In this document: positions 5,939 to 39,151 of the stretch, piece by piece | Layout of the letters: every line of letters starts with the position of its first letter | Position numbering within the stretch: position 1 is the stretch's first letter | NCBI GenBank assembly: GCA_043798985.1 | Contig: JAZDOE010000018.1 | Location: 8,057-72,056, forward strand | Origin: Candidatus Falkowbacteria bacterium | Lineage (GTDB): Bacteria; Patescibacteriota; Patescibacteriia; UBA11705; JACRDX01 | Reading direction: 5' to 3' | Length of the DNA: 64,000 bases | Notes under the pieces: generated by a model | Databases searched by the model: none | Seen by the model: the letters and a program-made list of their open reading frames with translations, nothing else | What the model was told of the DNA's origin: nothing | Made by a program: the position numbers and the translations under genes

Positions 5939-7240
5939 ATGGGGTTTGGAATTTTGAAAAATAAATTTATTCAGAATAGTTTTATTTATGTGGCAGGAAC
6001 AATTGCCGCGGGATTTTTGGGTTATATTTTTCAATTTGTCATTTCGCGAAAATTATCAGTCGCGCAATACGGCGAATTCCAAAGTTTAATGGCTGCGTCA
6101 GCGATTTTCGGCATCGTAAGTTCCGCTATAAGTTATTTTGTAATAAAATACAGTTCGGTTTTCGCGAAAAATAATGATTACGCAAGCAACAATTCTTTTT
6201 TAAAATTGACAAACGCGAAAATGCGAAAGCTGGCGATCTTGTTGGTCGTCGGTTTTTTGTTATTGTCGCCGATTTTGAAAAATTATTTACGGCTTGATGA
6301 TTATTATGGATTGATTTTGGTCGCGCTGACGTTATACGTTGGTTTAATAACAACCGGATACACGGCAACGCTTTCCGGCTGGCAAATGTTCGCGATTTCC
6401 AGTGGAATTGGAATATTTTTTGGGATTTTAAAGTTGTTGGCCGGTATAATTGGCACGCAACTTAGCCCAACGTCAACGAGCATTTTGTTTTTTCTGTTGA
6501 TTTTTAGCGGAATATCGGCGTTTGTTAGCTATTGGGTTGTTCGACAAAAATTTTACAACAAAACAACTGTAGAGACGGGATATATCCCGTCTCTACAATG
6601 GAAACAAAAATATTTCGCGACGCTTGATGTTGGCAAAAGTATATTGCCAATTACATTGTTCGCGTTGGCTGTCGCGCTTTTGCAAAACATTGATTTGCTG
6701 ATTGTTAAAAATTTGACCACCGCGGAAATCGCCGGGCAATATGCCGCGCTTAACGTTTTAGGAAAAATAATTTTTTGGATAAATGGCGCGATTATCGCGG
6801 TGGTTTTGCCAACCGCCTGCGCGACTGGAATTGATGGCAACCGGCCAAGCCGAAAATTGGCATTTAGCGCTTATGGGCTTATTGGATTTGTAAGTTTGTG
6901 CGGCATTGCCGCTTATTTCATCGCGCCGAACTTTATTGTTTCATTGTTGTTCGGCGCGAAATATTTAATCTTTGCAAAAGAACTTTGGCTGTTTGGTGTA
7001 ATGGCATTTGCTTTGTCAATTTTAATGTTAGAAGCGAATTTCGCTTACGCGCGTCATGATTTTCGCGTTAATTACATTATTGGCAGCGTTGTTCTGATGA
7101 TGATTATCGGAATTTACGGTTGGCACGCTACAATTCAGATTGTTGTTTTGGATATTATTGTCGCGATGCTGTTGGGTTTTATCGGCATGATAATTTTGAA
7201 TAATTGTCAAACAAAAAACATTGCAAAAACGGTTGTATAA
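5939..7240 (+). CDS. Polysaccharide biosynthesis protein / Wzx-like oligosaccharide flippase (polytopic)
   Basis: 433 aa and about 12 predicted TM helices, matching MOP/Wzx topology. Located at the head of the glycosyltransferase island. Confidence 0.55.
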   Translation: MGFGILKNKFIQNSFIYVAGTIAAGFLGYIFQFVISRKLSVAQYGEFQSLMAASAIFGIVSSAISYFVIKYSSVFAKNNDYASNNSFLKLTNAKMRKLAILLVVGFLLLSPILKNYLRLDDYYGLILVALTLYVGLITTGYTATLSGWQMFAISSGIGIFFGILKLLAGIIGTQLSPTSTSILFFLLIFSGISAFVSYWVVRQKFYNKTTVETGYIPSLQWKQKYFATLDVGKSILPITLFALAVALLQNIDLLIVKNLTTAEIAGQYAALNVLGKIIFWINGAIIAVVLPTACATGIDGNRPSRKLAFSAYGLIGFVSLCGIAAYFIAPNFIVSLLFGAKYLIFAKELWLFGVMAFALSILMLEANFAYARHDFRVNYIIGSVVLMMIIGIYGWHATIQIVVLDIIVAMLLGFIGMIILNNCQTKNIAKTVV

Positions 7241-7255
7241 GCATAAGATGGCAGT

Positions 7256-8203
7256 ATGATAAAAAAGATTTCAATTGTTGTGCCTGTTTATAACGAGGAA
7301 GCAAATGTTCAGATGCTTTATGATTCATTGATTAAATTGTTGCGCCCGCTTTTGACCAAGTATGATCATGAATTGATTTTTGTGGATGATGGCAGCGATG
7401 ATGGCAGCGCTAAAGTTATTGAGACGTTCAGCCAGCAAGATGCGCGAGTTAAGTGCATTGAATTTTCAAGGAATTTTGGCAAAGAAGCCGCGACAACTGC
7501 CGGAATAAATAATGCGACTGGCGACGCGGTTTTGTTGATTGACGCTGATTTGCAACATCCCGTGGAAAAAGTTTCAGAATTTTTGTCAAAGTGGGAAGCT
7601 GGCGCTGAAATCGTAATCGGAATCCGCGAGAAAAATCAAAAAGAAGGGTTGGTTAAATGGTTTGGTTCAATTGTTTTTCATAAATTAATGCAATGGATTG
7701 GTGAGACGAAAATAATTCCACGCGAAACAGATTTTCGTTTGTTGGATCGCAAAGTTGTTGATGAATTTAATAAATTGACAGAACGAAATCGAATGACGCG
7801 CGGGTTGATTGATTGGTTGGGATTTCGGCGAGATTATGTTTATTTTATCGCGAACCCGCGCTCTGCGGGCAAGGCTGGTTATGGTTTTTTGAAACTGACT
7901 CGGCTGGCATTCACCAGCTTTGTAAGTTATAGTTTGCTGCCCTTAAAATTGGCCGGATATTTGGGAATTTTTATTACATTAATTTCTGGTAGCCTCGGTT
8001 TATTTGTGTTTATTGAACGATATTTGCTGAACGATCCATGGAAATTGGAAATTCGCGGAACTGCGATTTTGGCGATAATAATTATGTTTTTGGTCGGCAT
8101 CATATTGATTTGTTTGGGGTTGATTGCTTTGTACATTGCCAATATTCACGGCGAAGTCAGCCGCCGGCCGATGTATATTCTCCGTAAAAAAAGTATTGAT
8201 TGA
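7256..8203 (+). CDS. GT2 polyprenol-phosphate glycosyltransferase (ArnC/GtrB/DPM1-like)
   Basis: N-terminal GT2 domain (IVVPVYNEEANV, DDGSDDGS, DADLQH) plus two C-terminal TM helices, typical of the ArnC/GtrB architecture. Confidence 0.75.
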   Translation: MIKKISIVVPVYNEEANVQMLYDSLIKLLRPLLTKYDHELIFVDDGSDDGSAKVIETFSQQDARVKCIEFSRNFGKEAATTAGINNATGDAVLLIDADLQHPVEKVSEFLSKWEAGAEIVIGIREKNQKEGLVKWFGSIVFHKLMQWIGETKIIPRETDFRLLDRKVVDEFNKLTERNRMTRGLIDWLGFRRDYVYFIANPRSAGKAGYGFLKLTRLAFTSFVSYSLLPLKLAGYLGIFITLISGSLGLFVFIERYLLNDPWKLEIRGTAILAIIIMFLVGIILICLGLIALYIANIHGEVSRRPMYILRKKSID

Positions 8204-8206
8204 ATT

Positions 8207-9145
8207 ATGCCAAAACGAATTTTAGTGACAGGCGGCGCGGGATTTATTGGCTCGCATTTGTGTCGGCGATTGTTGGCAGACGGAAATTTTGTTTTATGTC
8301 TGGATAATTGTTTCACTGGCTCGCACGAGAACATTGTGGAATTGTTGGACAATAAAAATTTTGAGTTTATCCGTCATGATATTGTTGAGCCGATTCTGTT
8401 AGAAGTTGACCAAATTTATAATTTGGCGTGTCCTGCTTCGCCCATTCATTATCAATTTAATCCAGTGAAAACAATTAAAACAAATGTCATTGGCACGTTG
8501 AACATGCTTGGCTTGGCAAAACGCGTTAAGGCGCGAATTTTGCAAGCGTCAACTTCCGAGGTTTATGGCGATCCAGTGGAACATCCGCAAAAAGAAACTT
8601 ATTGTGGCAACGTAAATCCGATCGGCATTCGTTCGTGTTATGACGAGGGAAAGCGGTGCGCCGAAGCGTTAATGATGGATTATCACAGGCAAAATAAAGT
8701 TGATATTAGAATCATTAGAATTTTTAATACATATGGTCCGCGAATGCATCCGAATGATGGCCGTGTTGTTTCAAATTTTATTGTGCAAGCATTGAAGAAT
8801 GAGCCGATTACTTTAATGGGAGACGGAAATCAGACACGATCATTTCAGTACGTTGACGATCTGATTGAAGGAATGACGCGCATGATGAACAATGAAATTA
8901 ATTTTATTGGGCCCGTGAATATTGGAAATCCGGGTGAGTTTACAATAAAGCAATTTGCTGAAATGGTTTTGAAATTCATTCCGGAAAGCAAGAGCCAAAT
9001 TGTTTTTACGGAATTACCGCAAGATGATCCGAAAAAACGCAAACCAGACATTTCATTGGCAAAAGAAAAATTGGGTTGGGCGCCAACGGTGCCGTTGGAA
9101 ATTGGTTTGCAAAAGACAATTGAATATTTTCGTGGCATAATTTGA
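8207..9145 (+). CDS. UDP-glucuronate decarboxylase (UDP-xylose synthase-like SDR)
   Basis: [57 protein letters not shown]. Near-collinear with UXS/ArnA decarboxylase-domain proteins. Confidence 0.85.
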
Positions 9146-9171
9146 AATTTGTAATTTGGCATTTGTTATTT

Positions 9172-10497
9172 ATGAAAATTTCAATATTTGGCGTTGGCTA
9201 TGTTGGCTTGGTGAGTGGCGCGTGTTTTGCCGAGCTTGGCAATGAAGTTTTATGTTGTGATATTAATGCTGAAAAAATTTCTGATTTGAAAAACGGGATA
9301 ATTCCGATTTTTGAGCCAGGTTTAAAGGATATTGTTGATCGAAATGTAAAATCCAACCGTTTATTTTTTACAACAAAGGCAGAAGAAGCGGTTAAATTCG
9401 GAGACATTATATTTATTGCAGTTGGCACACCGCCAAAAGAACATGGCCAAGCAGATTTAAAATATGTTTATACGGTTGCCGAAACAATTGGCGAGTATTT
9501 GGATAAAGATCAAAAAATCATTGTTGATAAATCAACCGTTCCGGTTGGCACAGCAGAAGAAGTGCGGACGATTATTGGGAAAAAATTAAGTTGTCGGGGA
9601 CAAAGTTTTAACTTTGCGGTTGTTTCAAATCCAGAATTTTTAAAAGAAGGCGACGCGATAAATGATTTTATGAAACCCGATCGCGTTGTTGTTGGTTGCG
9701 ATAAGGATTGGGCAAAAAAAATAATGGAAGATTTATATTTGCCAGTGACAAAAAACGGCCATTCGATTTTTTTTATGGATTTGAAATCAGCCGAAATGAC
9801 AAAATATGCGGCAAATGCATTGCTGGCAACAAAAATTTCTTTCATGAATCAAATGGCAAATCTTTGCGAAATGACCGGCGCTGACATTGAACAAGTCAGA
9901 AAAGGAATTTGCGCTGATCGCAGAATCGGACCACATTTTTTATATCCCGGATGCGGTTATGGCGGAAGTTGTTTTCCGAAAGATGTGCAGGCGCTTGCCA
10001 GTTTGTCGAAAAAATTTGGCTATACTCCGCAGTTGTTAGATGCTGTTGAAAATATCAATGAAACGCAAAAAGAAATTTTAGCGAAAAAAATTGTCGCGGG
10101 ATTGGGCGATTTAATTAGTAAAAAAATCGCGGTTTGGGGCTTGGCATTTAAGCCACAGACAGATGATATGCGCGAAGCGCCGGCGATAATTACGATTGAA
10201 CGATTATTGGCAAAGGGCGCGCGCATAAGTGCTTATGATCCTGTTGCGATGAAAGAGGCGAAGAAAATTTTCCGCGACAGAATTGATTATGCGTTTGACA
10301 TGTATGATTGTTTGCGCGACGCGGACGCGTTGGTGGTGATTACCGAGTGGCCAGAATTTAAATTACCTGATTTCGCGAAAATAAAAAGTTTATTGCGCGC
10401 GCCGATAATTTTTGACGGCAGGAACATTTATTCGCCAGAAAAAATGAAAGAATTGGGATTTAAATATTTTTGTATCGGCCGGCCAGTTTTATGCTGA
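9172..10497 (+). CDS. ugd: UDP-glucose 6-dehydrogenase
   Basis: MKISIFGVGYVGLVSGACFAELG Rossmann motif. Catalytic GGSCFPKD. Motifs NPEFLKEG and WGLAFKPQTDDMREAP. Confidence 0.85.
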   Translation: MKISIFGVGYVGLVSGACFAELGNEVLCCDINAEKISDLKNGIIPIFEPGLKDIVDRNVKSNRLFFTTKAEEAVKFGDIIFIAVGTPPKEHGQADLKYVYTVAETIGEYLDKDQKIIVDKSTVPVGTAEEVRTIIGKKLSCRGQSFNFAVVSNPEFLKEGDAINDFMKPDRVVVGCDKDWAKKIMEDLYLPVTKNGHSIFFMDLKSAEMTKYAANALLATKISFMNQMANLCEMTGADIEQVRKGICADRRIGPHFLYPGCGYGGSCFPKDVQALASLSKKFGYTPQLLDAVENINETQKEILAKKIVAGLGDLISKKIAVWGLAFKPQTDDMREAPAIITIERLLAKGARISAYDPVAMKEAKKIFRDRIDYAFDMYDCLRDADALVVITEWPEFKLPDFAKIKSLLRAPIIFDGRNIYSPEKMKELGFKYFCIGRPVLC

Positions 10498-11465
10498 AAT
10501 ACAGTTTTATAATACCAGTAAAAGAGATAAACAATTATGTTCGGGAAGCGGTTCCGAAAATTCTTGAAATTGGCCGCGAGGATTTTGAAATAATTTTATA
10601 TGTTGATATTGCGAATTCGGAGACTTGGTTGAAAACGCGGCAAATCGCAACTGGCCCGGGCGGGCCGGCAATGAAGCGAAGTTTAGCGGCGCGCGACGCG
10701 CAAGGTGAGATTTTGGTTTTTATCGATGATGATGCATATCCTAAAAAAGATTTTTTGGAAAAACTTGACGAAGCGTTTAAAAATGAAAATGTCGTTGCCG
10801 TTGGCGGGCCGGCGATTACGCCGGCTAATAATAATTTTTGGCAAAAAGTTTCCGGCGCGGTTTTTTTAAGTAAACTGTCCGGCGGGTTCCCCGAAAGGTA
10901 CGCGCCGGTCGGCTCAAAAAAGTTTATTGATGATTGGCCGAGCGTGAATTTGTCGGTGCGTAAGGATGCGTTTGCAAAAGTCGGCGGTTTTAAAAGTTCT
11001 TTTTGGCCCGGAGAAGACACATTGTTCTGCGAAGAATTGGTAAAAGAAACCGGTAAAAATATTTTATATGATCCTGCGGTAATTGTTTTTCATCATCGTA
11101 GAGAAGGATTTTTCAGGCATTTGAAACAGGTCGGTGCGTACGGGCTGCATCGCGGTTTTTTCGCGAAAAAGTTCGGCGGCGCGTCGTTGAAATTAAAATA
11201 TTTTTTGCCGAGTTTGTTTTTACTGTTTATCGTCCTTGGCGCAGGATTAAGTTTCGTTTCTTTTTTGCTTTTTAAACTTTACATTGCCGGATGGGCGATT
11301 TATTTATTGGCATTATTGAAAGCATTGCTGGATATTAAACAGTATGAAGCAAGTTGGCTGGTCGCGTTGCATTCGTTGTATTACATCGTGGCAACACATA
11401 TAGTTTACGGATGGCATTTTTTGCGTGGTTTATTTAAAAAAGAATTAGTTAGCAAGTTGCGGTAA
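10491..11465 (+). CDS. Glycosyltransferase family 2 with C-terminal TM helices; contains a GC-rich palindromic in-frame segment
   Basis: FIIPVKEINNYVREA, FIDDDAYP, FWPGEDTLFCEE. 10653-10669 GGCCCGGGCGGGCCGGC encodes TGPGGPAM. Confidence 0.6.
   Translation: MLKYSFIIPVKEINNYVREAVPKILEIGREDFEIILYVDIANSETWLKTRQIATGPGGPAMKRSLAARDAQGEILVFIDDDAYPKKDFLEKLDEAFKNENVVAVGGPAITPANNNFWQKVSGAVFLSKLSGGFPERYAPVGSKKFIDDWPSVNLSVRKDAFAKVGGFKSSFWPGEDTLFCEELVKETGKNILYDPAVIVFHHRREGFFRHLKQVGAYGLHRGFFAKKFGGASLKLKYFLPSLFLLFIVLGAGLSFVSFLLFKLYIAGWAIYLLALLKALLDIKQYEASWLVALHSLYYIVATHIVYGWHFLRGLFKKELVSKLR
10653..10669. repeat. GC-rich palindrome GGCCCG-GG-CGGGCC inside the GT2 gene
   Basis: Shares CCGGGCGGGC with the 11.8 kb copy. 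It encodes GPGGPA. Confidence 0.55.
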
Positions 11466-11471
11466 ATATTT

Positions 11472-12959
11472 ATGAAGATTGCCATATCATTTCCACCATT
11501 AAAATCAGAAAAAGGCATTCCTTTGCTTTCGCAAAATCGGCAGTTCCAATGGTTCAATAGCCCCACTTATATTTATCCCATGATTCCGGCGAGTGCCGCA
11601 ACTTTGTTGAAAAAAAATGGACATGAGGTTATTTGGGACGATGGAATCGCTGAAAAAATGGAGTATGACAAATGGCTAGAGCGAATTGTTGAAACGCAGC
11701 CGGACATTATCGCGATTGAAACAAAAACTCCGGTTGTAAAAAAACATTGGCAGATTATTAATGATTTGAAAGCACAATCTTTGAAAATTGAAAACCCGCC
11801 TGCCGGGCGGGCAGGTTGGAAATTGAAAATTGTGCTGATGGGCGATCATGTGACAGCATTGCCAGAAGAGTCAATGAAAAATTGCGATGTTGATTTTGTG
11901 ATTCAGGCTGGGGATTTTGATTTTATTTTGTTAAGCATTGCGAATAAACTTTCAGGACAAGGCGAGTTGGAAGGTGGAATTTGGTATAAAGAAAATAGTG
12001 AAATAAAAAATAGCGGCGCGTATGATTTGCACAAACATTCGCTGGATGAATTGCCAATGATTGATCGCGAACTGACGCACTGGAAATTGTATGCGTTTGA
12101 AAATGGAAATTTTAAATATACACCTGGTTCATATATGATGAGTGGTCGTGATTGCTGGTGGGGAAAGTGCAGCTTTTGTTCTTGGACAACTTTGTTCCCC
12201 GGACAAAATTTTCGGACGCGTTCCGCGAAAAATGCGCTTGATGAAGTTGGCGCGCTGATTGGTTTGGGGGTAAAAGAAATTATGGAAGATTCCGGAACAT
12301 TACCGATAGGTGATTGGCTAAAAGAATTTTGCGAGGGGATGATTGCGCGTGGCTATAATAAAAAAGTGACGATGAGTTGCAACATGAGAATTAACGCAAT
12401 TAAAGATGTTGAAATTTGGAAAATGATGAAAGCTACGGGATTTAGACTTGTTTTGTTCGGTTTGGAATCAGCAAACCAATTGACATTGGATAGACTTAAT
12501 AAAAATTTAAAAGTTGAAGAAATTGAAAACGGGTTAAAAATTTGTAAACAAGCGGGCTTGGAGCCGCACATTACGGCAATGATGGGTTATCCGTGGGAAA
12601 CGCTGGCAGATGCGCAAAACACGGTCGTTTTGGCGAAGAATTTATTTAAAAAGGGTTATGTTGATACTTTGCAAGCAACGATTGTAATTCCTTATCCGGG
12701 AACGCCATTGCATAGATATTGTAACGAAAATAATTTGTTGAATTTTGAAGATTATGATCGGTTTGATCAACGGGAACAGGTTATGAAAAGCGCGCTAACA
12801 ACCGAAGATGTGCGTAAGTTAACTCAAAATTTGTACCGCGCGTGGATGAGCCCAAGTTTTATCGCGCGGAAAGTTTTTTCGATGAGAAATGTTGCTGATT
12901 TTAAATATTTATTTAAAGCCACGATGAAATTATTCGGGCATTTAATGGATTTTAAATAA
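11472..12959 (+). CDS. B12-binding-domain radical SAM protein (class B-like) with a non-canonical Cx4Cx2C cluster motif
   Basis: N-terminal B12-binding-like Rossmann region. The segment SGRDCWWGKCSFCSW. Downstream rSAM barrel motifs. In-frame GC palindrome at 11795-11815. Confidence 0.55.
   Translation: MKIAISFPPLKSEKGIPLLSQNRQFQWFNSPTYIYPMIPASAATLLKKNGHEVIWDDGIAEKMEYDKWLERIVETQPDIIAIETKTPVVKKHWQIINDLKAQSLKIENPPAGRAGWKLKIVLMGDHVTALPEESMKNCDVDFVIQAGDFDFILLSIANKLSGQGELEGGIWYKENSEIKNSGAYDLHKHSLDELPMIDRELTHWKLYAFENGNFKYTPGSYMMSGRDCWWGKCSFCSWTTLFPGQNFRTRSAKNALDEVGALIGLGVKEIMEDSGTLPIGDWLKEFCEGMIARGYNKKVTMSCNMRINAIKDVEIWKMMKATGFRLVLFGLESANQLTLDRLNKNLKVEEIENGLKICKQAGLEPHITAMMGYPWETLADAQNTVVLAKNLFKKGYVDTLQATIVIPYPGTPLHRYCNENNLLNFEDYDRFDQREQVMKSALTTEDVRKLTQNLYRAWMSPSFIARKVFSMRNVADFKYLFKATMKLFGHLMDFK
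11795..11815. repeat. GC-rich palindrome CCTGCC-GGGCG-GGCAGG inside the radical SAM gene
   Basis: Shares the 10-mer CCGGGCGGGC with 10656-10665. It encodes PAGRAGW. Confidence 0.6.
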
Positions 12960-22772: not shown

Positions 22773-22781
22773 ATATTTTTT

Positions 22782-23876: not shown

Positions 23877-23888
23877 TGGTCTATTTTT

Positions 23889-28689: not shown

Positions 28690-28700
28690 CTTGGTACACT

Positions 28701-30287: not shown

Positions 30288-30293
30288 TAATTT

Positions 30294-31301: not shown

Positions 31302-31321
31302 TATTTAATTAATTTAATTTT

Positions 31322-31719: not shown

Positions 31720-32994
31720 ATGCGGTTGTGTTTTTATAATCCGCACGCGATAATCAATGCCACAGGTGAAACCGTCGTATCAAGATTGGCACAATTTTTT
31801 GGTACTAACAAAAAAAAACTGAGAAAGCACGTTCAGAAATATTCATTTTTGTTAAATATTTTAAGAAACAAAAAATACAAAACGGCCATTATCGTCGATG
31901 GCGCAGAAACTTCGTTCGGAGCGGTTTTAAATAGAATCTTGCTCCTTAAAAATAATCAATTCATCTACTGCGCGATCTCTTTTGTAGAAATATACATTTG
32001 GTGTTTGTTAAACAAAATAAATCCATTGAAACAAACGATAATTTTCAATAAAAAAAGATTGCGAATAGACGAAGATATTTTGTTTGGCTTTGCGTTCTGT
32101 TCGGAGTTATTTTTAAACGAACAATTACTGAGTAAAAGTATAATGAAATCCTTTAACGGTCTAAAGATCTTGCATGCTTCTCATTTTTATAAATTTACAA
32201 AACGCGTCGCTGAGAATGTTCATAAAGCGGGAATTAAATACATGGTTGCAGAAACCGATCTGAAAAAGTCGCCGTATTTTAATAAGTTTTTTGGTTTTAT
32301 TGAAAAAGTGTATATTCTGCCACATGTTTTGAGAGAAAAATATATAAAAATTACGGATTTCGCAAATAGAAAAAATATTTGCCTTGCGCTGGGAACGCTT
32401 GTGATTGAAAGTGCGCAGGACAAATCCAACCAAGACTATTTGGAATTTTTCAAAATAGACACATTGCATCCGATGAGAAAAATCATTTTTGAAAATAAAG
32501 ATAATCTTCCGCAAATTGATTGTTGCATTAACCTTCATAATAAAGACAGGATGGTGATTTCGCAAAAATCAAAATGGTACAACAAAAACGGTTTTTTCAA
32601 ATTGTTCTACGATTTATTTTTTTTAGCAGAGGGAAAAGAATATCACAGCATGGACATTGTGAAAAAATATAATGAATATAAAATGTTTATCGCGCCCGAA
32701 GAAAATATCGGTTTAACCTCTATAAACGTATGCGAAGGAATGGCTTGCGGCTGCGCGTATATAGGGCTGGATAGCGATATGTATAAAGATATGGGCATGA
32801 TTGGCACGCAACATTATATTGCGTATGACGGCATGTTTGAAGATTTAAAAAATAAAATAAATTATTATCAAAATCATCCGAGCGAGCTGGAACAAATCGC
32901 GCAAAACGGTTATGTGTTTGCGCACGAAAATTTTGCGGAAGAAAAAGTGGTCGCAGATTTTTGGACTTACTTGGAAAAATTGATACAACGATAA
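31720..32994 (+). CDS. Divergent glycosyltransferase family 1-like protein
   Basis: C-terminus EGMACGCAYIGLDSDMY...ELEQIAQNGYVFAHENF resembles GT1 C-terminal domains. The N-terminus is unassigned. Confidence 0.4.
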   Translation: MRLCFYNPHAIINATGETVVSRLAQFFGTNKKKLRKHVQKYSFLLNILRNKKYKTAIIVDGAETSFGAVLNRILLLKNNQFIYCAISFVEIYIWCLLNKINPLKQTIIFNKKRLRIDEDILFGFAFCSELFLNEQLLSKSIMKSFNGLKILHASHFYKFTKRVAENVHKAGIKYMVAETDLKKSPYFNKFFGFIEKVYILPHVLREKYIKITDFANRKNICLALGTLVIESAQDKSNQDYLEFFKIDTLHPMRKIIFENKDNLPQIDCCINLHNKDRMVISQKSKWYNKNGFFKLFYDLFFLAEGKEYHSMDIVKKYNEYKMFIAPEENIGLTSINVCEGMACGCAYIGLDSDMYKDMGMIGTQHYIAYDGMFEDLKNKINYYQNHPSELEQIAQNGYVFAHENFAEEKVVADFWTYLEKLIQR

Positions 32995-35576
32995 TGAAAA
33001 ATTGTTTTAATTCAGTACGGTCTATTAAGATTGGCATTATTTTTTTAACATGTCTTTTCTTTTTAATTTTGCTGATTCTATACTCTCAAAATTATTTGCT
33101 TTTGGGCGGGGAGGGGAATTATATTACTGATTTTCAGCTCACAAAAGACGCGGGGATTTTTACATGGGTTTCGCACATTCAAGGATTGGGATTTCCAAGC
33201 CCTATCTTAAATGCGCTTCGTGGAATTTTCGACCTATTCGCGCTGCTACAAAAATTAACGCTTTCTTTTAAGGTTGCAAATATTGTAAGTGCTTGGCTGG
33301 TTTATATTCTGCCCTTTCTTTCAATGTTTTGGCTGTTAAGCAAAATATTGAAAAGGAGTTTTCCCCTTGCGTATTTTGTTTCATTATTTTATATCATAAA
33401 TCCTTTCAGTACGTTCCATTTACAAGGATTAATGTTTTGGAATATTGCGCTGCTGTTTGTTCTGCCTTTGATTTTCGGCGTGCTTTATAAATATTATTCT
33501 CATGGCTTAAAACTGTTTTTCTTTTTTGGATTGTTGACCAGTCTCTTATCCTTTTCGCTCGCGAATATTCCTTATTTGGGTATTTTCCAGATTTTTTTAT
33601 TCAGTTCATTGATTATAATTCCCTACATGCAAGAAAAAACGCCGCGCGTCCGCGCTGTTGTTAAAAATATCGTCATAACGGAACTAAGTTTTTTGCTTTT
33701 TAACGCGTGGTGGTTTTTAAATCTGTTGCGTTTTCAGATGCAGGACATTGGTCTTTATTATACAAAAGAATTTGCCGTTAGTTGGGCGCAGGCTTATGCG
33801 GGCGATGGAAGTATAATAGCGAAACTTTTCTCATTAACTTCATTAATTTCAAGCAACGATGATAATTTTTTTGCAAGTTTTTTTTACAGCATTCCGATGA
33901 GGCTGATTCTGCTTGTGCCATTTGGATTACTTACCTTTCAGTTTTTTATAAAGCCAAGCAAAGAATATTCTGTTGATAAAAAAATTGTTTCAATTCTCGC
34001 GCTTTTCGTTGCAGGGATTATGTTTTTTGCCAAAGGCGCGAATCAACCACTCGGCGAGCTGTATATTTGGATGCTGAATCACATTCCGTTTTTTATTATC
34101 TTCAAAAGTCCGATAGAAAAATTTTCTTTGCTTTTTGTCTTTTTTTTGGCGCTCACGATGATTTATGTTTTTAAAAATATAAAAACCAAATGGGCGTATT
34201 GTTTGTTTGCAGTTTACCTGACCGCGTGCAGCATCCCATATCTTAGTTTGAATTTTATGCCTGATTTTAGATTCGAAAAAGGCGCCCAAGGAGAAGAGGA
34301 TAAATATATTTCCAAAAAATATGTTTATAAAGAAAATTATTTTGCGGCGGCAGAATCGCTCAATAAACAAAAATTAGAATGTCGATATTTAAGTTTGCCC
34401 GGCTCAGCGAATTACCAGGTAACTTTATTGAACCATGATGGCAATAAATATTACCGCGGCATGGATCCATTCGTTTATTCGGTTAATAAGCCTTTTATTA
34501 CATCCTACTCAACGCCCGCTTTGAATTTTATATTTTACGGTCTCTCGAACGATTCCATTGAAATTTTTTTAAACGCGTTTAATATAAGAAAGATAATCGT
34601 AAATCAAGATCTCTATCCATCATTTGGCAGGGTGGAGAAGGAGCTTCCCGAAGAATTGATAAGTATTTTTTCTAAAAAATATAAAAAAGAAGATTTTAGC
34701 CCAATAACAGTTTTTAGCGTGAAAGATTTTTTGCCGCTTATTTATGTCCCACGCAATTTGATAGTAGCGGAAAACGCTACTGAGCTATCTGCTATTCTTT
34801 CGGAAGCAGATTATAAAATTGATTCGGCGATTTATTTTAAAAATCAGCTTAGTGATAAGGAGACGCAGCCATCTCTGGCGGCAAAAGGCGTCCTTCCGGC
34901 GGTAGAATTCAAAAGAATCAACTCGATTAAATATCGCGTCGTTTTGCATCAAGCGCACGGTGAGTTGCCTGTAATTTTTAACGAATCGTTTCATGCTGGC
35001 TGGAAATTGTATCCGACAAATTTGCAGTCGGTTGATAGCGTTGGTCTGCAGAACAGGCTTGCAGATTATAATATTTTGGATGGCAACGAAGATGATCAAG
35101 CGACAATCGATGAGGTTAAAAATTATATTCAACAAGGATTTATAACCTCGCTTGGCAACGGCAAAGAAAAGACGGTAAAGCATTGGCGACTAGTCGTTGA
35201 TAAGAAAAAATTGGATTACATAGAAAAATATAAAATTGATTTTGTATCTAAAAATTTTCATGGCACAATTCAAAATAATAATCTTATCGATGGAAATTTT
35301 TATGAGACATGGCGATTCAATTCGCTTGCTAACCATGGCAGCCATGTAAAAGTGAATGGTTTTTTTAATAGTTGGATTATTAACGTGGACGATATTTGCG
35401 CTGGAAAAACGTTATGCCAGTGGAATCCTAACGGAACCTATGACATGGAATTAATTTTAGAATTTTCGCCGCAACGATTATTTTATTATGGGCTGGCGAC
35501 GTCTATCGCAACACTGTTTTTGTCGCTCGCATCTTTGTTCTTTGTGAGTTTAATAAAAAAACACGCGAAACAATAA
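32994..35576 (+). CDS. Large polytopic membrane protein (about 12-14 TM N-terminal domain plus soluble C-terminal domain); candidate GT-C/YfhO-like glycan transferase or polymerase
   Basis: Topology inferred from the hydrophobicity pattern only. The start is chosen at the ATG overlapping the upstream stop (TAATG); the ORF track gives 32961. Confidence 0.3.
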   Translation: MKNCFNSVRSIKIGIIFLTCLFFLILLILYSQNYLLLGGEGNYITDFQLTKDAGIFTWVSHIQGLGFPSPILNALRGIFDLFALLQKLTLSFKVANIVSAWLVYILPFLSMFWLLSKILKRSFPLAYFVSLFYIINPFSTFHLQGLMFWNIALLFVLPLIFGVLYKYYSHGLKLFFFFGLLTSLLSFSLANIPYLGIFQIFLFSSLIIIPYMQEKTPRVRAVVKNIVITELSFLLFNAWWFLNLLRFQMQDIGLYYTKEFAVSWAQAYAGDGSIIAKLFSLTSLISSNDDNFFASFFYSIPMRLILLVPFGLLTFQFFIKPSKEYSVDKKIVSILALFVAGIMFFAKGANQPLGELYIWMLNHIPFFIIFKSPIEKFSLLFVFFLALTMIYVFKNIKTKWAYCLFAVYLTACSIPYLSLNFMPDFRFEKGAQGEEDKYISKKYVYKENYFAAAESLNKQKLECRYLSLPGSANYQVTLLNHDGNKYYRGMDPFVYSVNKPFITSYSTPALNFIFYGLSNDSIEIFLNAFNIRKIIVNQDLYPSFGRVEKELPEELISIFSKKYKKEDFSPITVFSVKDFLPLIYVPRNLIVAENATELSAILSEADYKIDSAIYFKNQLSDKETQPSLAAKGVLPAVEFKRINSIKYRVVLHQAHGELPVIFNESFHAGWKLYPTNLQSVDSVGLQNRLADYNILDGNEDDQATIDEVKNYIQQGFITSLGNGKEKTVKHWRLVVDKKKLDYIEKYKIDFVSKNFHGTIQNNNLIDGNFYETWRFNSLANHGSHVKVNGFFNSWIINVDDICAGKTLCQWNPNGTYDMELILEFSPQRLFYYGLATSIATLFLSLASLFFVSLIKKHAKQ

Positions 35577-35596: not shown

Positions 35597-36709
35597 ATGA
35601 CTAAAATAAAAATAATTTTAAACTGGCTTAAAAACATAAAAGTCATTTATAATCTTCGAGAATTTTTTGTTTTTTATCTATCAAAATTTTCAGAATTTAA
35701 AAAGCTACCCGCTGATAAAAAATATTTACTCTCTAATTACGGTTTTGTCGGTAGTTATTGCTCGCGGCTTTTTGTTGACCATGCTCCTGTTTTTATGGAA
35801 TCGGAAATAAAAAATATTGCGGAAAAGGTTTTTGACGATGAGGATTCAAGGAAGTTATATTATCTGTTTTTTTTAAGGCAAATGCATTGCGCATATTTTG
35901 TTGATGGTTGGGAAAAATATTATGATGACGAAAGAACGTTTGAAGAAAAATTGAGGAAAATAAAATCTGCTATAGCAAGCAATGTTATTTTTGTGGGGAA
36001 CCTTTTTTTCACTAAAACAAAGAAGAAAAAAAAATTTATTCTAAACTTTACAAACGGTGCAACTTATATTTTGCCAATCAATTGGTTTGAGATAAGTGTT
36101 TTTTGCATGAAGCTCGGATTGCCATACTTAAAAGCCGAATATCTTAGTTATATAAAAAGGGGGAACGTCATAGATGCGGGCGCGTTCGTGGGGGACAGTA
36201 GTATTGTCTTAGCTGAATACACCGACGAAAAAGTATTTGCTATAGAAGCACACGCGGAAAATTTTAAATTATTGGAAAAAACAGTAGCGTTAAATAATCT
36301 ACAAACCAAAATAATTGCTTTAAATGCAGCGCTGGATAGAGAAGTCAGGCGGGTTAATATTATCAGCAGTGGCGCGGGTGCGCGAACGGCTGTCGCTGAC
36401 GGTCAATTTTGCACCGTTTCGACTGTGACTTTGGATAAGTTATTTGAAAACAAAAGTCAAAAAATCAGCCTCATAAAACTTGACGTGGAGGGATTTGAAA
36501 TGAATATACTCTTAGGCGCCGATCAGGTGATTCGGCGAGACAAGCCAGTCCTTTTTGTCTCTATTTATCATAGTGGCGAACAATTTATTAACGTTCCGTT
36601 ACAACTTAAAGAAAAATACTCGGATATTTATAGTTTTAAGTTTATTGATTGTAATCCCGTTCATCCGTTGGCGGAAAAGGTTTTGTTGTGCTTGCCTAAA
36701 GATGTTTGA
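35597..36709 (+). CDS. FkbM-family methyltransferase
   Basis: VIDAGAFVGDSSIVLAEY...VFAIEAHAENFKLLEK...NL matches the Methyltransf_21/FkbM core. Confidence 0.6.
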   Translation: MTKIKIILNWLKNIKVIYNLREFFVFYLSKFSEFKKLPADKKYLLSNYGFVGSYCSRLFVDHAPVFMESEIKNIAEKVFDDEDSRKLYYLFFLRQMHCAYFVDGWEKYYDDERTFEEKLRKIKSAIASNVIFVGNLFFTKTKKKKKFILNFTNGATYILPINWFEISVFCMKLGLPYLKAEYLSYIKRGNVIDAGAFVGDSSIVLAEYTDEKVFAIEAHAENFKLLEKTVALNNLQTKIIALNAALDREVRRVNIISSGAGARTAVADGQFCTVSTVTLDKLFENKSQKISLIKLDVEGFEMNILLGADQVIRRDKPVLFVSIYHSGEQFINVPLQLKEKYSDIYSFKFIDCNPVHPLAEKVLLCLPKDV

Positions 36710-38406
36710 TTCCAAAAGTTGATATGCGATTTCCTAGTAAAAAAAACATGGTTTCACTGCTGCCCTATTTTCTGATTATTTGCGCAATTGCGCTGCCGTG
36801 GTTTTTATCTTCTGCATATTTATTTTTTGTGGATTTATCATGGGGGCCAATTATTAATATTGATTGGCATGGATCTTATTTGTTTCTTACGCTGATATTT
36901 AGATTGTTAACATACTTTTTGTCGAGTGCCCTTGTGGAAAAAATTTTTATTTCAGCGATCTTGCTATTTATTCTTTTAGGCGGAAGAGCGTTAGTTATGT
37001 CGGTTTTGAAATTATGTCAGAACGATGCGTTGGATGGTCATAATGGAGTAGTTTTTGTTTTAAGTTTGTTTTTACTGTTTAATCATTTTGTTTATGATCG
37101 TGCGCTGTATGGGCAATTTGGTATTCTCGCGGCTTATGGTGCATTGCTTTTTTTGTTTGCTTACTCATTGAGAACGTTGAAAGAATTAAATCCACGGTAT
37201 TTGATTTACGCGATAGCGTCAGCTACGATCAGCATAATGTTTGCAATTCATTTCATTTTTTTGGTTGCGATAATTTTTTTGTTATTATTTTGGGGCTTAT
37301 TTGCACAACAAAAGTTAATTAGAGCACGGAAGTTGAATAAGTCTCTTTGGCAAGCGCTGTTCCTTTCCGTGCTAATATTTTTGATTCTTAATGCAAATTG
37401 GTTGGCATTTTTTTTCCTCGGTGAAGGTGCATCACTAATTGCGCAAGATATTGGCCGACAAGACTTAAATATTTTTAAAACCGCGGGTATAACGCAAACA
37501 GAAGCAGTGTCGAACGTCTTTTTTATGGGGGGGTTCTGGGCAAAGGATATGAATCGGTATGTTGACATGGCCGCTTTAAAACAAAACTGGGGTAGAAGTT
37601 TTTTTCTGTTATTGCCATTAATTTGCTGGGGTGTGATAAAAGGATTACGAAACAGCAAACAAGAGCCGAATTTGTTTTATTTCACAATTGGTTTGATAAT
37701 AATTTTTGCTACGACGTTTATTTTAGCATTAGGAATAAGTACGCCATTTAGTAGCAAAATAACATTATTGCTATTTAACAACTTTCCGCTTTATAAAGGA
37801 ATGCGTGAACCGCAAAAATGGGTAGCGCTCATTGTAATCATTTACACAATATTTTTATCTATCGGGGTAAAAGAATTTTTTAAATTAAAAATCATTGCTA
37901 AAGATCATATTTTGTTTAAAATTATTTTGACGCTGGTGATTATTATGCAGGCTCCGTTGCTACTTTGGGGATTTGGCGGGCAGATAAAACCGGTTGATTA
38001 TCCAAAAGATTGGTATAGGGTTGATAAGATTACCGCAGGCAATGCGATATCTCAAAAATGCGATGATAAAATTTTATTCTTACCATGGCATATGTACATG
38101 GGATTTCAGTGGGTTGGCCGTGTCATTGCCAATCCGGCAAAAGTATTTTTCCAATGCCCTGTTATAAGCGGAACAAATATGGAAGCAGGCCCGATTTATG
38201 ACAATAGCGGTGACCCAACGGGACAAAAAGTCGCGGCATGGATTTCTGCTCAGGGTGAAACCAACTTGTTTGTTTCAGAAAAAATAAAATATATTATTTT
38301 AGCCAAAGAAGTAGATTGGCAAGGTTACGCTTGGATAAATTCTTTGACAAATTTGCAATTGATTAAAGATTCTGAAACGCTTAAACTATATAAAGTAGTT
38401 GAATAA
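36706..38406 (+). CDS. Polytopic membrane protein, uncharacterised (candidate GT-C/ligase/polymerase)
   Basis: 566 aa and more than 10 hydrophobic helices. Confidence 0.3.
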   Translation: MIPKVDMRFPSKKNMVSLLPYFLIICAIALPWFLSSAYLFFVDLSWGPIINIDWHGSYLFLTLIFRLLTYFLSSALVEKIFISAILLFILLGGRALVMSVLKLCQNDALDGHNGVVFVLSLFLLFNHFVYDRALYGQFGILAAYGALLFLFAYSLRTLKELNPRYLIYAIASATISIMFAIHFIFLVAIIFLLLFWGLFAQQKLIRARKLNKSLWQALFLSVLIFLILNANWLAFFFLGEGASLIAQDIGRQDLNIFKTAGITQTEAVSNVFFMGGFWAKDMNRYVDMAALKQNWGRSFFLLLPLICWGVIKGLRNSKQEPNLFYFTIGLIIIFATTFILALGISTPFSSKITLLLFNNFPLYKGMREPQKWVALIVIIYTIFLSIGVKEFFKLKIIAKDHILFKIILTLVIIMQAPLLLWGFGGQIKPVDYPKDWYRVDKITAGNAISQKCDDKILFLPWHMYMGFQWVGRVIANPAKVFFQCPVISGTNMEAGPIYDNSGDPTGQKVAAWISAQGETNLFVSEKIKYIILAKEVDWQGYAWINSLTNLQLIKDSETLKLYKVVE

Positions 38407-38410
38407 AATT

Positions 38411-39151
38411 ATGGCAGCAAAAGAAAAAACGCGCAACATATTGAAGTTTTTGTTGAATGATATTGCGGAAATTTTTCCTTTGCTGTTTGTTTTCTATGCT
38501 GCTGCTTTTTTGCTATCCTTAGTTTTTGAATCATGGAAATTGTATTTTAATTGGCCAATATTCCACGTTAACATTTTAATTTTGGGTTTGTTTAGTTTTT
38601 TGAGCGAATACGGACGCAAAAAATTTGCTACGATAGTTTCTTTTATAAAAGTAGAGGCAAAAAAAATCGTTGCGTCAACGTTAAACAAATCAATGTTCCG
38701 TGATAAAAAAGTAAACATTCTTAATTTACTATTCATTATTTCAGAAATCGCGATTACGTATATTTTTGCGATCATTAAACGAGCAGTAATTGGTTTGCTA
38801 AAACTTATTATTAAAATCATCGCGCTTGCTTTGGATATTCGCCAGCAAGGATTTAAAAACTATTTAAAATTTGTTTTGCTTGCAATTATTTTAACCTTTG
38901 CGATTACGAAAGGAGCAAATGTTGTTGAATTACTGATTTGGATTTACGCGTTTCGTGCGATATTTGTAGGCATTGATAGTCGCATTAGCGCTGGTATTGC
39001 TTTGGCCTTGTTGGCAACCTGCCCGATTTTATTAATTTTAAAAAAGAATGCGATAGCCGAACAATCTGCTGTTTTTGCGTATTATTTTTTGGTTATAGTT
39101 GTAATCACGCAAATTATTGAATTACGCCGCGAATCAAAAACAAAGAAATAA
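38411..39151 (+). CDS. Hypothetical membrane protein
   Basis: Hydrophobic helices. The start is set at the ATG just after the upstream stop; the ORF track gives 38399. Confidence 0.3.
   Translation: MAAKEKTRNILKFLLNDIAEIFPLLFVFYAAAFLLSLVFESWKLYFNWPIFHVNILILGLFSFLSEYGRKKFATIVSFIKVEAKKIVASTLNKSMFRDKKVNILNLLFIISEIAITYIFAIIKRAVIGLLKLIIKIIALALDIRQQGFKNYLKFVLLAIILTFAITKGANVVELLIWIYAFRAIFVGIDSRISAGIALALLATCPILLILKKNAIAEQSAVFAYYFLVIVVITQIIELRRESKTKK

Follow-up and report, generated by a model that had tools for sequence, protein, structure and literature searches.

The roughly 31 kb between positions 8207 and 39151 (24 genes) are probably a lineage-variable cell-surface glycoconjugate island with a lipid-linked assembly mechanism, set in a conserved frame formed by the genes at 5939, 7256 and 39364, and the most likely product is a methylated, phosphonate-bearing cell-surface glycan. 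The host genome is the MAG of an ultra-small CPR bacterium, Candidatus Falkowbacteria, and the window is the whole 64-kb stretch of it that was analysed. On the ORF map, positions 5939–39151 are filled by 26 consecutive + strand ORFs (29 once those at 4385, 5644 and 39364 are added); a first-pass annotation of this DNA had counted about 30 co-directional genes, of which the unbroken run stands but not the number. As it had also stated, spacers are minimal or overlapping, with intergenic gaps of at most 62 nt and nine overlapping gene pairs. Promoter and terminator scans gave no convincing terminator inside the island, and nearly every gene in 5939–39151 has been assigned a glycan or phosphonate role. 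Because nearly all genes of the window lie on the + strand, as do all those described below (just 2–3 of about 58 are on the − strand), co-directionality is non-specific here, and the features above chance are functional coherence and tight packing, shared strand excluded. The glycoconjugate island as such is real and, by ORF map and family content, 31–35 kb long.

The frame opens with a MOP-superfamily (Wzx/RfbX-like) flippase for lipid-linked glycan (5939..7240; about 12 or more TM segments). It lacks a direct Pfam match; homologues at 82–87% identity are annotated with PF01943/PF13440 and named 'O-antigen/teichoic acid export membrane protein' by JGI, and these domains bear out the earlier flippase call. 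Next to it lies a GT2 polyprenol-phosphate glycosyltransferase of the GtrB/PgfS/ArnC type (7256..8203) with two C-terminal TM helices (segments at 227–290). Upstream are a 97-aa ORF (5644..5937) with two predicted TM segments and no match in family searches, and a 412-aa membrane protein (4385..5623) that joins an N-terminal thioredoxin-like CPHC domain (weak glutaredoxin matches, CxxC motif) to a polytopic C-terminal part with TM segments. A homologue of the latter (69% identity) holds the same position in a syntenic relative, L086, and we regard it as a conserved frame gene that probably has no glycan-specific role. The 3′ frame gene (39364..40830) encodes an Fn3 protein of 488 aa that is anchored in the membrane, contains a KAEEAKK linker and is rich in Thr, Ser and Ala (70 Thr, 36 Ser), with a homologue (61% identity) directly 3′ of the GT2 genes in L086 and C-terminal homology in L084. 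One small gene alone separates the GT2 from the Thr-rich Fn3 protein in L086, where the 31-kb block is absent, and 8207–39151 is therefore a lineage-variable insert in a conserved flippase–GT2–surface-protein locus. Other Patescibacteria keep the order flippase-GT2...GT4-MT-MT-GT-C...GT-C-250aa, with differing sugar genes mid-locus. Since the Fn3 protein is both synteny-linked and Thr/Ser-rich, it is a plausible candidate glycan acceptor, the carrier role that the first-pass annotation had suggested for it.

The insert begins with two genes for UDP-sugar supply. The enzyme encoded at 8207..9145 matches human UXS1 with E=6e-125 (420 bits, versus about 88 bits for ArnA), has the motifs STSEVYG, YDEGK and RIFNTYGPR, and is by these matches a canonical, true UDP-xylose synthase (UDP-glucuronate decarboxylase, UXS type). 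Enzymes of the UXS type yield UDP-xylose by reducing the 4-keto intermediate. The neighbouring UDP-glucose 6-dehydrogenase (Ugd; 9142..10497) has all three UDPG_MGDP_dh domains, a 557-bit match to TuaD and an NDP-sugar dehydrogenase subfamily score above cutoff. Family matches thus uphold both enzymes as originally called, and together they are predicted to supply UDP-GlcA and UDP-xylose. A DegT-family PLP sugar aminotransferase (22782..23876) groups by its bit scores with C-3 aminotransferases of the QdtB/DesV type (QdtB 349, WlaRG 305, DesV 302, WbpE 247, ArnB 164). Its partner, an atypical extended SDR (21786..22772), carries STRQxYG and NGINK where the catalytic Tyr of YxxxK would be expected, motifs that are kept throughout its family, and natural SDR-DegT and SDR-methyltransferase fusions of this family occur elsewhere. 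A class I SAM methyltransferase (23889..24611; family match) follows, with no TylM1/DesVI-like match in the PDB. Family searches confirm the presence of aminotransferase and SDR, and we read the Tyr-less SDR, the QdtB/DesV-like aminotransferase and the methyltransferase as an amino-sugar unit (21786–24611). The lack of a canonical catalytic Tyr in the SDR counts against the preferred explanation of the island.

The first-pass annotation had read Ugd, the decarboxylase, an aminotransferase resembling ArnB and a GT2 resembling ArnC as the core of the island, which together would form a lipid-linked route of the UDP-4-amino-pentose (L-Ara4N-like) kind. Each of the four enzyme classes is indeed found, lower-ranking matches to ArnC (139 bits) and ArnB (219 bits) are detectable, and Ugd, UXS, flippase and GT2 are likewise grouped in a second Patescibacteria genome (L085). 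Against this stand the canonical UXS nature of the decarboxylase; the scores of the aminotransferase, 247–349 bits to C-3 aminotransferases versus 164 to ArnB; and its separation from the UXS by 13.6 kb and seven genes, beside its own SDR (DegT-fused elsewhere), so that we are dealing with a true UDP-xylose synthase unlinked to the aminotransferase. The GT2 at 7256 is nearer to GtrB than to ArnC (GtrB sll0501 233 bits and ArnC 125 bits against the PDB; PgfS 224 bits and ArnC 139 bits as full-length matches), and of the proposed 'ArnC/GtrB-type' enzyme a GtrB/PgfS-like polyprenol-phosphate GT2 is what holds. Family searches of the island revealed no formyltransferase (ArnA), deformylase (ArnD), ArnT-type GT83 domain or ArnE/F. 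The island does not encode an L-Ara4N route; that model is already largely refuted, and we consider it highly improbable. Resemblance to the Arn (PmrHFIJKLM plus Ugd) lipid A pathway comprises Ugd, a UDP-GlcA decarboxylase, a DegT aminotransferase, a polyprenol-phosphate GT2 and GT-C enzymes, while the decarboxylase type, the aminotransferase clade and the missing Arn parts set the two apart. Lipid A synthesis is not known from CPR bacteria. What remains of the earlier interpretation is a glycoconjugate island with phosphonate, methyltransferases, flippase, GT2 and GT-C enzymes, without the Ara4N core.

The predicted phosphonate would be made by the product of a single 1208-aa ORF (14649..18275) comprising a cytidylyltransferase (PF01467), PEP mutase (Ppm, 408 bits), phosphonopyruvate decarboxylase (Ppd, 492 bits) and Fe-alcohol dehydrogenase. 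Ppm and Ppd both exceed their NCBIfam cutoffs, the 10-residue Ppm motif is present, and the four-domain fusion belongs to the island as the first reading had it. A PF01467-Ppm fusion with Ppd and Fe-ADH, shared with the 2-hydroxyethylphosphonate (HEP) pathways of fosfomycin (Fom1/Fom2/FomC/Fom3) and of the HEP-bearing exopolysaccharide of Stackebrandtia nassauensis (PMC6697681, PMC8942020), implies HEP and CMP-HEP; the predicted product is thus CMP-activated HEP, for which Fom1-type cytidylyltransferase is the precedent (PMC6697681). As in S. nassauensis, the HEP is predicted to end up on a cell-surface glycan, and, like Fom3 in the fosfomycin pathway, B12-radical-SAM enzymes are encoded close by. 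Unlike in those pathways, the functions are united in one ORF (they are three separate genes in 80 of 80 related loci), the epoxidase/hydrolase for a free antibiotic is absent, and the role of transferase would fall to a CDP-alcohol phosphotransferase, not to a LicD- or TagF-like enzyme. This membrane enzyme (18289..19083; PF01066), in which the motif DxxDGxxARx8GxxxDxxxD is complete, occupies the site of the TagF-like gene in Bacteroidota loci; the CDP-donor transferase directly after the ADH function is of the CDP-OH family here and TagF-like in 26 of the 80 related loci. We propose that it transfers either the phosphonyl group or some other alcohol phosphate activated with CDP. A homologue (33% identity) sits in another Patescibacteria glycan locus whose 10 kb shown hold no phosphonate genes, and homologues occur in 0 of the 80 Ppm loci, so adjacency is what ties 18289 to the phosphonate.

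Of 8 CPR/DPANN loci, 6 have genes for B12-radical-SAM proteins beside their Ppm genes, an arrangement that the other loci all lack. The island has two such proteins: a B12-binding radical SAM enzyme (11472..12959; PF04055 and PF02310), with HpnJ as best match (147 bits over full length, below the HpnJ cutoff), and a fusion of a B12-radical SAM domain with a GT4 (GT-B) glycosyltransferase (19122..21782; domain matches), whose PDB matches (TokK, OxsB, AprD4) are all weak. Both could target sugars (HpnJ-like) instead of the phosphonate. They come in addition to five SAM methyltransferases, in line with the five or more first listed: the C-terminal half of 12961, 23889, the scaffold pair 25877..26749 (family match and relatives' loci) and 26746..27384 (60% identity in L082 and L083), and an FkbM-family enzyme (35597..36709; TIGR01444 93.6 bits, above cutoff). 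The three GT2 enzymes that had been announced are likewise present, namely 7256, a protein with a C-terminal membrane segment (10470..11465; PF00535/PF13632, TM at 240–285, weak AglG/MftF-like matches) and the N-terminal half of a GT2–class I SAM methyltransferase fusion identified by domain search (12961..14586), 65% identical to a stand-alone GT2 adjoining a CDP-OH transferase in L082. Three to four GT1 enzymes had been proposed; two are firm GT-B/GT4 enzymes, the C-terminal half of 19122 and the Patescibacteria-conserved scaffold GT4 at 24633..25880 (family match), which in L081 and L082 has homologues (36–40% identity) that precede the gene of the 871-aa family, but the third (31720..32994) is a weak GT-B-like/GT90-like candidate. 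The block at 27371–31699 probably provides a further activated building block; it encodes a KdsC-like HAD sugar-phosphate phosphatase (27371..27871; TIGR01670 64.6 bits, below cutoff), a putative oxidoreductase of the shikimate dehydrogenase family (AroE-like; 27868..28689; TIGR00507 202.2 bits, cutoff 200.2), an N-terminal nucleotidyltransferase with a C-terminal extension of about 300 aa that is faintly APH-kinase-like (28701..30287), a 335-aa protein (30294..31301) weakly matching GatZ/KbaZ (class II aldolase/epimerase TIM-barrel) and a 125-aa cupin (31322..31699) resembling the C-terminal part of phosphomannose isomerase, the last two without match in PDB sequence searches.

The recurrence of these parts could also mean that independent pathways with separate products, for example for a phosphonolipid, for protein O-glycosylation and for a polysaccharide, have collected at one recombination hot spot. 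Ppm-Ppd-ADH with a TagF-like gene recurs in Bacteroidota, the SDR-DegT unit recurs as fusions, the GT4-MT-MT-GT-C scaffold occurs without phosphonate genes, L086 lacks the entire block and co-directionality is genome-wide. We find such a mosaic unlikely: the tight packing and the failure to find convincing internal terminators oppose it, as does the interleaving of phosphonate, glycosyltransferase and methyltransferase genes, which do not form separate blocks; the GT2-MT gene and the rSAM-GT4 gene, for example, directly flank the phosphonate genes on their 5′ and 3′ sides.

The two large polytopic GT-C-like proteins of the first-pass annotation are corroborated by AlphaFold2 and Foldseek. The first (32961..35576; 871 aa, NCBI V1902_02955), with a large extracytoplasmic beta-rich domain, has 44 homologues, all in Patescibacteria and without Pfam domain; its model (pLDDT 86) is closest to AftD (E=1.7e-8), followed by AftA, ALG12, DPY19, STT3 and ArnT. 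The second (36706..38406; 566 aa, V1902_02965) has more than 148 homologues in Patescibacteria and an invariant D43 in the first loop, and its model (pLDDT 87) matches AftD (2.5e-6), STT3, PglB and AglB. With a probability of 96.9% in hhalign between the two families, they are modelled as paralogous, Pfam-less, CPR-specific GT-C-fold glycosyltransferases of AftD/STT3-like fold, the second a distant, CPR-wide paralogue of the first. Directly 3′ follows a conserved 250-aa polytopic membrane protein (38399..39151), without Pfam match, whose homologue (29% identity) has the same position in L084.

In the mechanism that we favour, sugars, methyl groups and phosphonate would be built up at the cytoplasmic face on a lipid carrier, likely polyprenol-phosphate, with the GT2 at 7256 as likely initiator; the CDP-OH transferase would take a (hydroxyalkyl)phosphonyl group off its CMP ester and attach it to a hydroxyl acceptor, the MOP flippase would export the lipid-linked intermediates, and the two GT-C enzymes would transfer the glycan outside the membrane to Thr/Ser-rich surface protein(s) and/or lipid. 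A GT-A plus GT-C system has been shown experimentally to glycosylate Ser/Thr-rich surface proteins of the same cluster (PMC12041528). Family searches recognised no initiating phosphoglycosyltransferase, Wzy or Wzz in the island, which speaks against this explanation. The missing initiator would suit a lipoglycan in place of a glycoprotein, by analogy to mycobacterial PIM/LM/LAM: 18289 would make a PIP-synthase-like phospholipid or phosphonolipid anchor, the GT4s would glycosylate it in the cytoplasm and the AftD-like GT-Cs would extend it outside from GT2-made polyprenol-P-sugars. Consistent with this, family searches place 18289 nearest to archaetidylinositol-phosphate and PIP synthases (AF2299 56 bits, PIP synthase 31 bits), the GT4 domains yield MshA/PimA-type matches, both GT-C proteins are structurally most similar to AftD and AftA, a related protein of 849 aa from Patescibacteria attains the Pfam GT-C_AftD cutoff, and Ppm clusters of the CDP-OH type have been predicted to produce phosphonolipids (PMC8942020). 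Yet the lipid-synthase scores all fall far under family cutoffs, the GT-C fold matches do not discriminate the acceptor, with STT3 and PglB scoring similarly, and synteny ties the Thr/Ser-rich surface protein to the locus, which leaves a lipoglycan rather doubtful. The mycobacterial assembly of PIM/LM/LAM and arabinan (PgsA1, PimA/B, Ppm1, AftD/AftA) shares with the island a CDP-OH transferase, GT4, polyprenol-phosphate GT2 and AftD-like GT-C folds, but sequence-level orthology is absent (about 11% identity to AftD), the sugars differ and the CPR organism has no mycomembrane.

For glycosylation on the surface protein, the closest parallels are the streptococcal Pgf (PgfS = GT-A, PgfM1/PgfM2 = GT-C) and GtrB-PgtC2 protein O-glycosylation systems (PMC12041528, PMC5856776) and three-component GtrABC-type systems in general, which likewise use a GtrB/PgfS-type polyprenol-phosphate GT2. 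Also in common are enzymes of GT-C fold whose first external loop bears an acidic residue, and a Ser/Thr-rich surface protein gene beside the machinery. They differ in that the GT-Cs here are two Pfam-less CPR-specific families, not YfhO-family, and that about 20 extra genes serve sugars, methylation and phosphonate; the flippase is MOP-type rather than GtrA-type. The Haloferax Agl N-glycosylation pathway (AglJ/G/I/E GT2s, AglM, AglP methyltransferase, AglR flippase, AglS/AglB) differs in its STT3/AglB Pfam domain, absent here where the host is bacterial (CPR), but resembles the island in its polyprenol monophosphate assembly logic and sugar methylation, with weak matches to AglJ, AglG and AglM.

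The genes of the 64-kb window lie almost entirely on one strand (only two or three of about 58 are on the − strand), and in the ORF map + strand ORFs follow one another without interruption from 4385 until past 45 kb, so that co-directionality as such is not special to the glycan gene island at 5939–39151. The island itself is real and functionally coherent. It is tightly packed, with a largest gap of 62 nt and overlaps in nine gene pairs, and comprises 26 genes where the first-pass annotation had counted about 30. Pfam and NCBIfam scans recovered most of the inventory proposed earlier, all on the + strand: three GT2 enzymes (7256, 10470 and the N-terminal half of 12961), Ugd (9142), two extended SDRs (8207 and 21786), a DegT aminotransferase (22782), two B12-radical-SAM proteins (11472 and the N-terminal half of 19122), a 1208-aa cytidylyltransferase/PEP mutase (Ppm)/phosphonopyruvate decarboxylase (Ppd)/Fe-ADH protein (14649–18275) and a CDP-alcohol phosphotransferase (18289). 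The expected five or more methyltransferases are present as five SAM methyltransferases (C-terminal half of 12961, 23889, 25877, 26746 and 35597). Of the three to four GT1 enzymes listed earlier, the scans recovered two as GT4 domains, one C-terminal in 19122 and one in 24633, plus a weak GT-B-like match in 31720. Three island proteins correspond at 100% identity to NCBI entries from a Candidatus Falkowbacteria MAG (V1902_02840, V1902_02955 and V1902_02965, on a 72-kb contig); exact-sequence look-ups of 14649, 8207, 40908 and P0165 returned no record. Promoter and terminator scans gave counts close to the shuffled expectation and revealed no operon boundaries, and the Rfam scan of the window returned two tRNAs as its sole result and no riboswitches. 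The island is best read as a lineage-variable CPR glycoconjugate locus that combines UDP-xylose/UDP-GlcA supply, an amino sugar, heavy methylation and CMP-activated hydroxyethylphosphonate, with a product that would be exported by a MOP flippase and then transferred extracytoplasmically by two CPR-specific GT-C enzymes. Its components are of known kinds; new are their combination, the CPR-specific GT-C families, a Tyr-less SDR–DegT unit and a triple fusion.

Housekeeping genes flank the island: at its 5′ end a Mur ligase, tRNA-Trp and a Zip transporter, and at its 3′ end QueA, MetRS, TatD, PBP2 and another Mur ligase, with LexA and glycolytic genes beyond them. A JGI contig, L086, carries these flanking genes at 60–80% identity to those of the window, in the order Mur ligase, Zip, Metallophos, 412-aa protein, flippase (63%), GT2 (77%), one small GT2, Fn3 protein (61%), QueA and onward. 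Because L086 has this frame without the block in between, 8207–39151 (about 31 kb, 24 genes) is a variable insert in a conserved locus. In other Patescibacteria this frame persists around different middles: GCA_028711565.1 encodes Ugd (52%), UXS (68%), flippase, GT2 (54%), WbpB/D/E-like genes and GT4, followed by an 849-aa protein meeting the Pfam cutoff for GT-C_AftD, a 541-aa GT-C (42%), a membrane protein of 281 aa and a protein of 479 aa; three further loci (L081–L083) have GT4 and two methyltransferase genes and then a GT-C of the 871-aa family described below; and in a Minisyncoccia contig flippase and GT2 are followed by rhamnose genes and GT-C. Judged by gene order, the organisation is that of a variable surface-glycan locus, like O-antigen or capsule loci. 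CPR/Patescibacteria, whose genomes measure about 1 Mb, are regarded as living on host cells to which they attach, and to our knowledge their surface chemistry is essentially unknown. One elaborate surface glycan would take about 3% of such a genome, and a conserved frame (flippase, GtrB-like GT2 and two unclassified GT-C families) around a swappable middle suggests surface-glycan diversification under selection in episymbionts. Third-codon-position G−C skew of the + strand genes (window 2402–63769) runs from +0.1 to +0.44 between 2402 and about 31.7 kb, is mostly positive up to 42 kb and, past 42.5 kb, stays near zero or a little below it, gene orientation being unchanged. In L086 (91–20767) the skew changes at the equivalent place, between the GT2 gene and the homologue of the Fn3 protein, so that the island lies at a conserved GC-skew transition. 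We rejected composition as a signal of horizontal transfer, since the GC3 skew extends over the conserved flanking genes, is common to L086 and does not mark the island.

The earlier proposal that Ugd, UXS, ArnB and ArnC homologues form the core of an L-Ara4N-like route fails on the decarboxylase, on the aminotransferase and on missing Arn partners. The product of 8207 aligns with human UXS1 at E=6e-125 and 420 bits, versus about 88 bits with ArnA; it has full-length similarity to characterised UXS, contains the UXS motifs STSEVYG, YDEGK and RIFNTYGPR, and retains the catalytic T/S-E, YxxxK and R residues. It is thus a predicted UDP-xylose synthase and not an ArnA-type oxidative decarboxylase releasing UDP-4-keto-pentose. 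The aminotransferase 22782 scores 349 bits with QdtB, 305 with WlaRG, 302 with DesV and 247 with WbpE, all of them C-3 aminotransferases, and 164 with ArnB; its clade argues for C-3 rather than ArnB-type C-4 regiochemistry. The two genes are 13.6 kb apart, and the direct neighbour of the aminotransferase is the second SDR, 21786. A true UXS unlinked to the aminotransferase, which the first-pass annotation had named as the observation that would overturn its route, is therefore what the locus presents. The GT2 enzyme 7256 does belong to the subfamily of ArnC and has its architecture, yet GtrB (233 bits versus 125 for ArnC in the PDB search) and PgfS (224 versus 139) score above ArnC. Pfam and NCBIfam scans of the island proteins found no ArnA formyltransferase or polysaccharide-deacetylase (ArnD) domain and no PMT_2/ArnT (GT83) or EamA/SMR-type (ArnE/F) match, and ArnT ranks only 9–10 (E=0.02) in the Foldseek search with the 871-aa protein. 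The Ara4N label, which we withdraw, was a wrong annotation hinting at lipid A chemistry; we know of no LPS production in this lineage.

The SDR 21786 has STRQIYG in place of the TDE of 4,6-dehydratases and NGINK in place of the catalytic YxxxK. It was considered as a 4,6-dehydratase and as an ArnA-like decarboxylase, and both assignments were rejected on the STRQ for TDE exchange and the missing catalytic Tyr; the usual route to a keto-sugar is not expected of a Tyr-less SDR. A search of 1.84 billion cluster representatives returned 2291 relatives at E below 1e-30, the close ones sharing the consensus STRQxYG ... DxNGIxK, which makes Tyr loss a family trait. In natural fusions, members of this family are joined with DegT aminotransferases (database proteins P0240, P0328 and P0280), a methyltransferase (P0297) or another SDR, and the DegT and methyltransferase fusions identify the SDR–DegT–methyltransferase triplet at 21786–24611 as a recurrent functional unit. 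No solved structure is close to 21786, the best being T. maritima GalE at 158 bits. The PDB sequence search gave no usable match for the methyltransferase 23889, leaving an N,N-dimethyltransferase (TylM1/DesVI) role unsupported. The Tyr-less family, repeatedly fused to DegT aminotransferases, is a concrete target for experiments. Further downstream, the block at 27371–31699 encodes a KdsC-like phosphatase, a dehydrogenase of the AroE family, a nucleotidyltransferase whose extension faintly resembles APH kinases, a protein with weak similarity to GatZ and a cupin, which together resemble a pathway to a further nucleotide-activated sugar or polyol. In PDB sequence searches 28701 gave weak N-terminal GalU/LicC matches only, and neither the cupin (31322) nor the 335-aa protein (30294) gave a usable match, so that a 3,4-ketoisomerase (QdtA/FdtA) role is likewise unsupported.

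Export and transfer are represented by a flippase, a GT2 and two GT-C proteins. Although 5939 has no direct Pfam match, its homologues at 82–87% identity carry PF01943/PF13440 and O-antigen/teichoic acid export names, by which 5939 is assigned as a divergent MOP (Wzx-like) flippase. It thereby supplies, through the domains of its homologues, the Wzx element of a Wzx/Wzy pathway; Bac_transf, MraY/WecA, Wzy_C and Wzz domains were absent from the island in the Pfam and NCBIfam scans, in which the membrane proteins 5644 and 38399 received no assignment. The GT2 7256 is a full-length GtrB/PgfS/ArnC-type protein, a GT-A domain with two C-terminal TM helices, predicted to charge polyprenol phosphate. 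Pfam domains are lacking in both the 871-aa (32961) and the 566-aa (36706) protein; all homologues, 44 for the former and more than 148 for the latter, are from Patescibacteria. AlphaFold2 models of both, built on family alignments, reached pLDDT 86 and 87 and pTM 0.87 and 0.90, respectively. Foldseek searches of the PDB matched the 871-aa model to AftD (E=1.7e-8), AftA, ALG12, DPY19, STT3 and ArnT, and the 566-aa model to AftD (E=2.5e-6), eukaryotic STT3, PglB, AglB and AftA; the top matches of both models are GT-C enzymes only, with probability 1.0 to AftD, STT3 and PglB, and the GT-C-like character first proposed for these two large polytopic proteins is thus borne out. The first external loop has an invariant D43 in the 566-aa family and, as its conserved acidic residue, E40 (at least 90% conserved) in the 871-aa family. 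By hhalign the families are distantly paralogous (probability 96.9%). The GT-A and GT-C features match those of the GtrABC, Pgf and CsbB–YfhO systems, but the small GtrA/GtcA-type flippase of these systems was not found, the island having the MOP type instead. Both Pfam-less GT-C families are concrete targets for experiments. V1902_02965 is deposited at 490 aa, whereas family members of about 560 aa align from the TTG start at 36706, and its deposited start is probably too far downstream.

The phosphonate module is carried by 14649, with Ppm at 408 bits (TIGR02320) and Ppd at 492 bits (TIGR03297), both exceeding the curated cutoffs, and with the EDKxxxxxNS motif diagnostic of PEP mutase ([10 protein letters not shown]) at residue 273. 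Pfam further detects a PF01467 cytidylyltransferase and an Fe-ADH domain, candidates for the Fom1 and PhpC/FomC types, respectively, the latter scoring 179 bits against a cutoff of 424 in the phosphonate-specific ADH model. Fusion of a PF01467 cytidylyltransferase to Ppm is the arrangement of Fom1, which makes CMP-2-hydroxyethylphosphonate (CMP-HEP) (PMC6697681). In all 80 related Ppm loci that we compared from reference genomes, the functions of 14649 reside in three adjacent genes of about 433, 376 and 375 aa; a single ORF for all of them occurs in the window and in none of the 80, and one Saccharibacteria locus (L030) has Ppd and ADH fused (755 aa). The commonest neighbour, in 26 of the 80 loci (L002, L012, L031–L059, L067) and mainly in Bacteroidota and Ignavibacteria, is a TagF-like CDP-glycerol-type transferase (Glyphos_transf), a candidate CMP-HEP:acceptor phosphonyl transferase; in 22 of these 26 loci it follows the HEP-forming ADH gene at a distance of no more than 80 nt. 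A profile of these 26 neighbours matched nothing in the window, by which 31720 was rejected as a TagF-like phosphonyl transferase. The TagF-like position is held here by 18289, a CDP-alcohol phosphotransferase with complete catalytic motif. As both families use CDP-activated donors, the analogy supports a putative role for 18289 in phosphonyl transfer from a CMP-activated phosphonate to glycan or lipid. As a caveat, none of the 80 Ppm loci has a CDP-OH transferase homologue; one at 33% identity occurs in another Patescibacteria glycan locus, phosphonate genes being absent from the 10 kb examined. The module suggests phosphatase-resistant C–P decorations on CPR cells.

B12-binding radical SAM genes adjoin Ppm genes in six of eight CPR/DPANN loci (L027, L030, L054, L062, L064 and L077) and in none of about 70 from other phyla, and the loci with most island genes in common are from Woesearchaeota, Nanoarchaeota, Portnoybacteria and Saccharibacteria. 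A B12-radical-SAM gene beside Ppm recalls Fom3. The best match of 11472, however, is HpnJ, the substrate of which is a lipid-linked sugar, so that its target may be a sugar and not the phosphonate. A metagenome scan with the rSAM–GT4 fusion matched the GT4 domain only, at 39% identity, and thus gave no evidence of the central block recurring as a unit. Two cobalamin-dependent radical SAM proteins are encoded in this CPR genome (11472–12959 and 19122–20561). Since the window shows neither a cobalamin riboswitch nor genes for B12 biosynthesis, the cell would depend on cobalamin from outside, a requirement that would come with the phosphonate module.

As to the acceptor, the Fn3 protein 39364 has a membrane anchor at its N terminus, a region strongly enriched in Thr, Ser and Ala (70 Thr and 36 Ser in 488 residues) and, besides the Fn3 domain, a charged linker of the KAEEAKK type and a C-terminal domain that is conserved. 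In streptococci, Ser/Thr-rich regions of surface proteins are glycosylated by GtrB/PgfS-type GT-A and GT-C enzymes, and the genes for the adhesins that serve as substrates belong to the pgf cluster itself (PMC12041528); by this analogy 39364 is a plausible glycan carrier. The acceptor could equally well be a lipid: an initiating phosphoglycosyltransferase is missing from the island, the CDP-OH transferase is PIP-synthase-like and the GT-C folds are AftD-like. In one elaboration of the lipid alternative, which we consider a long shot, 18289 would join CMP-2-hydroxyethylphosphonate (or a radical-SAM-methylated 2-hydroxypropyl form) to diacylglycerol, the rSAM-fused GT4 would glycosylate the free hydroxyl and, after flipping, the two AftD-like GT-Cs would extend the product to a LAM-like lipoglycan with a C–P lipid anchor. 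If true, a phosphonate-anchored lipoglycan in a CPR bacterium would be a membrane anchor type not described so far.

Some further observations concern the flanks. The called GTG start (603) of the Mur-ligase ORF at 603–2150 falls within tRNA-Trp (589–662), so translation must begin further downstream; immediately before this tRNA lies the ORF of a GIY-YIG nuclease (231–581). Phosphoglycerate kinase (PGK) is split at 53682–54865 into ORF 53682–54116 (PGK 5–121) and the overlapping ORF 54059–54865 (PGK 120–379), the result of a frameshift, pseudogene or sequencing error. In the 412-aa protein at 4385–5623 a secreted, thioredoxin-like domain with CPHC is joined to a polytopic region that resembles DsbD/CcdA, and the homologue of this protein in L086 (69% identity) lies directly upstream of the flippase.
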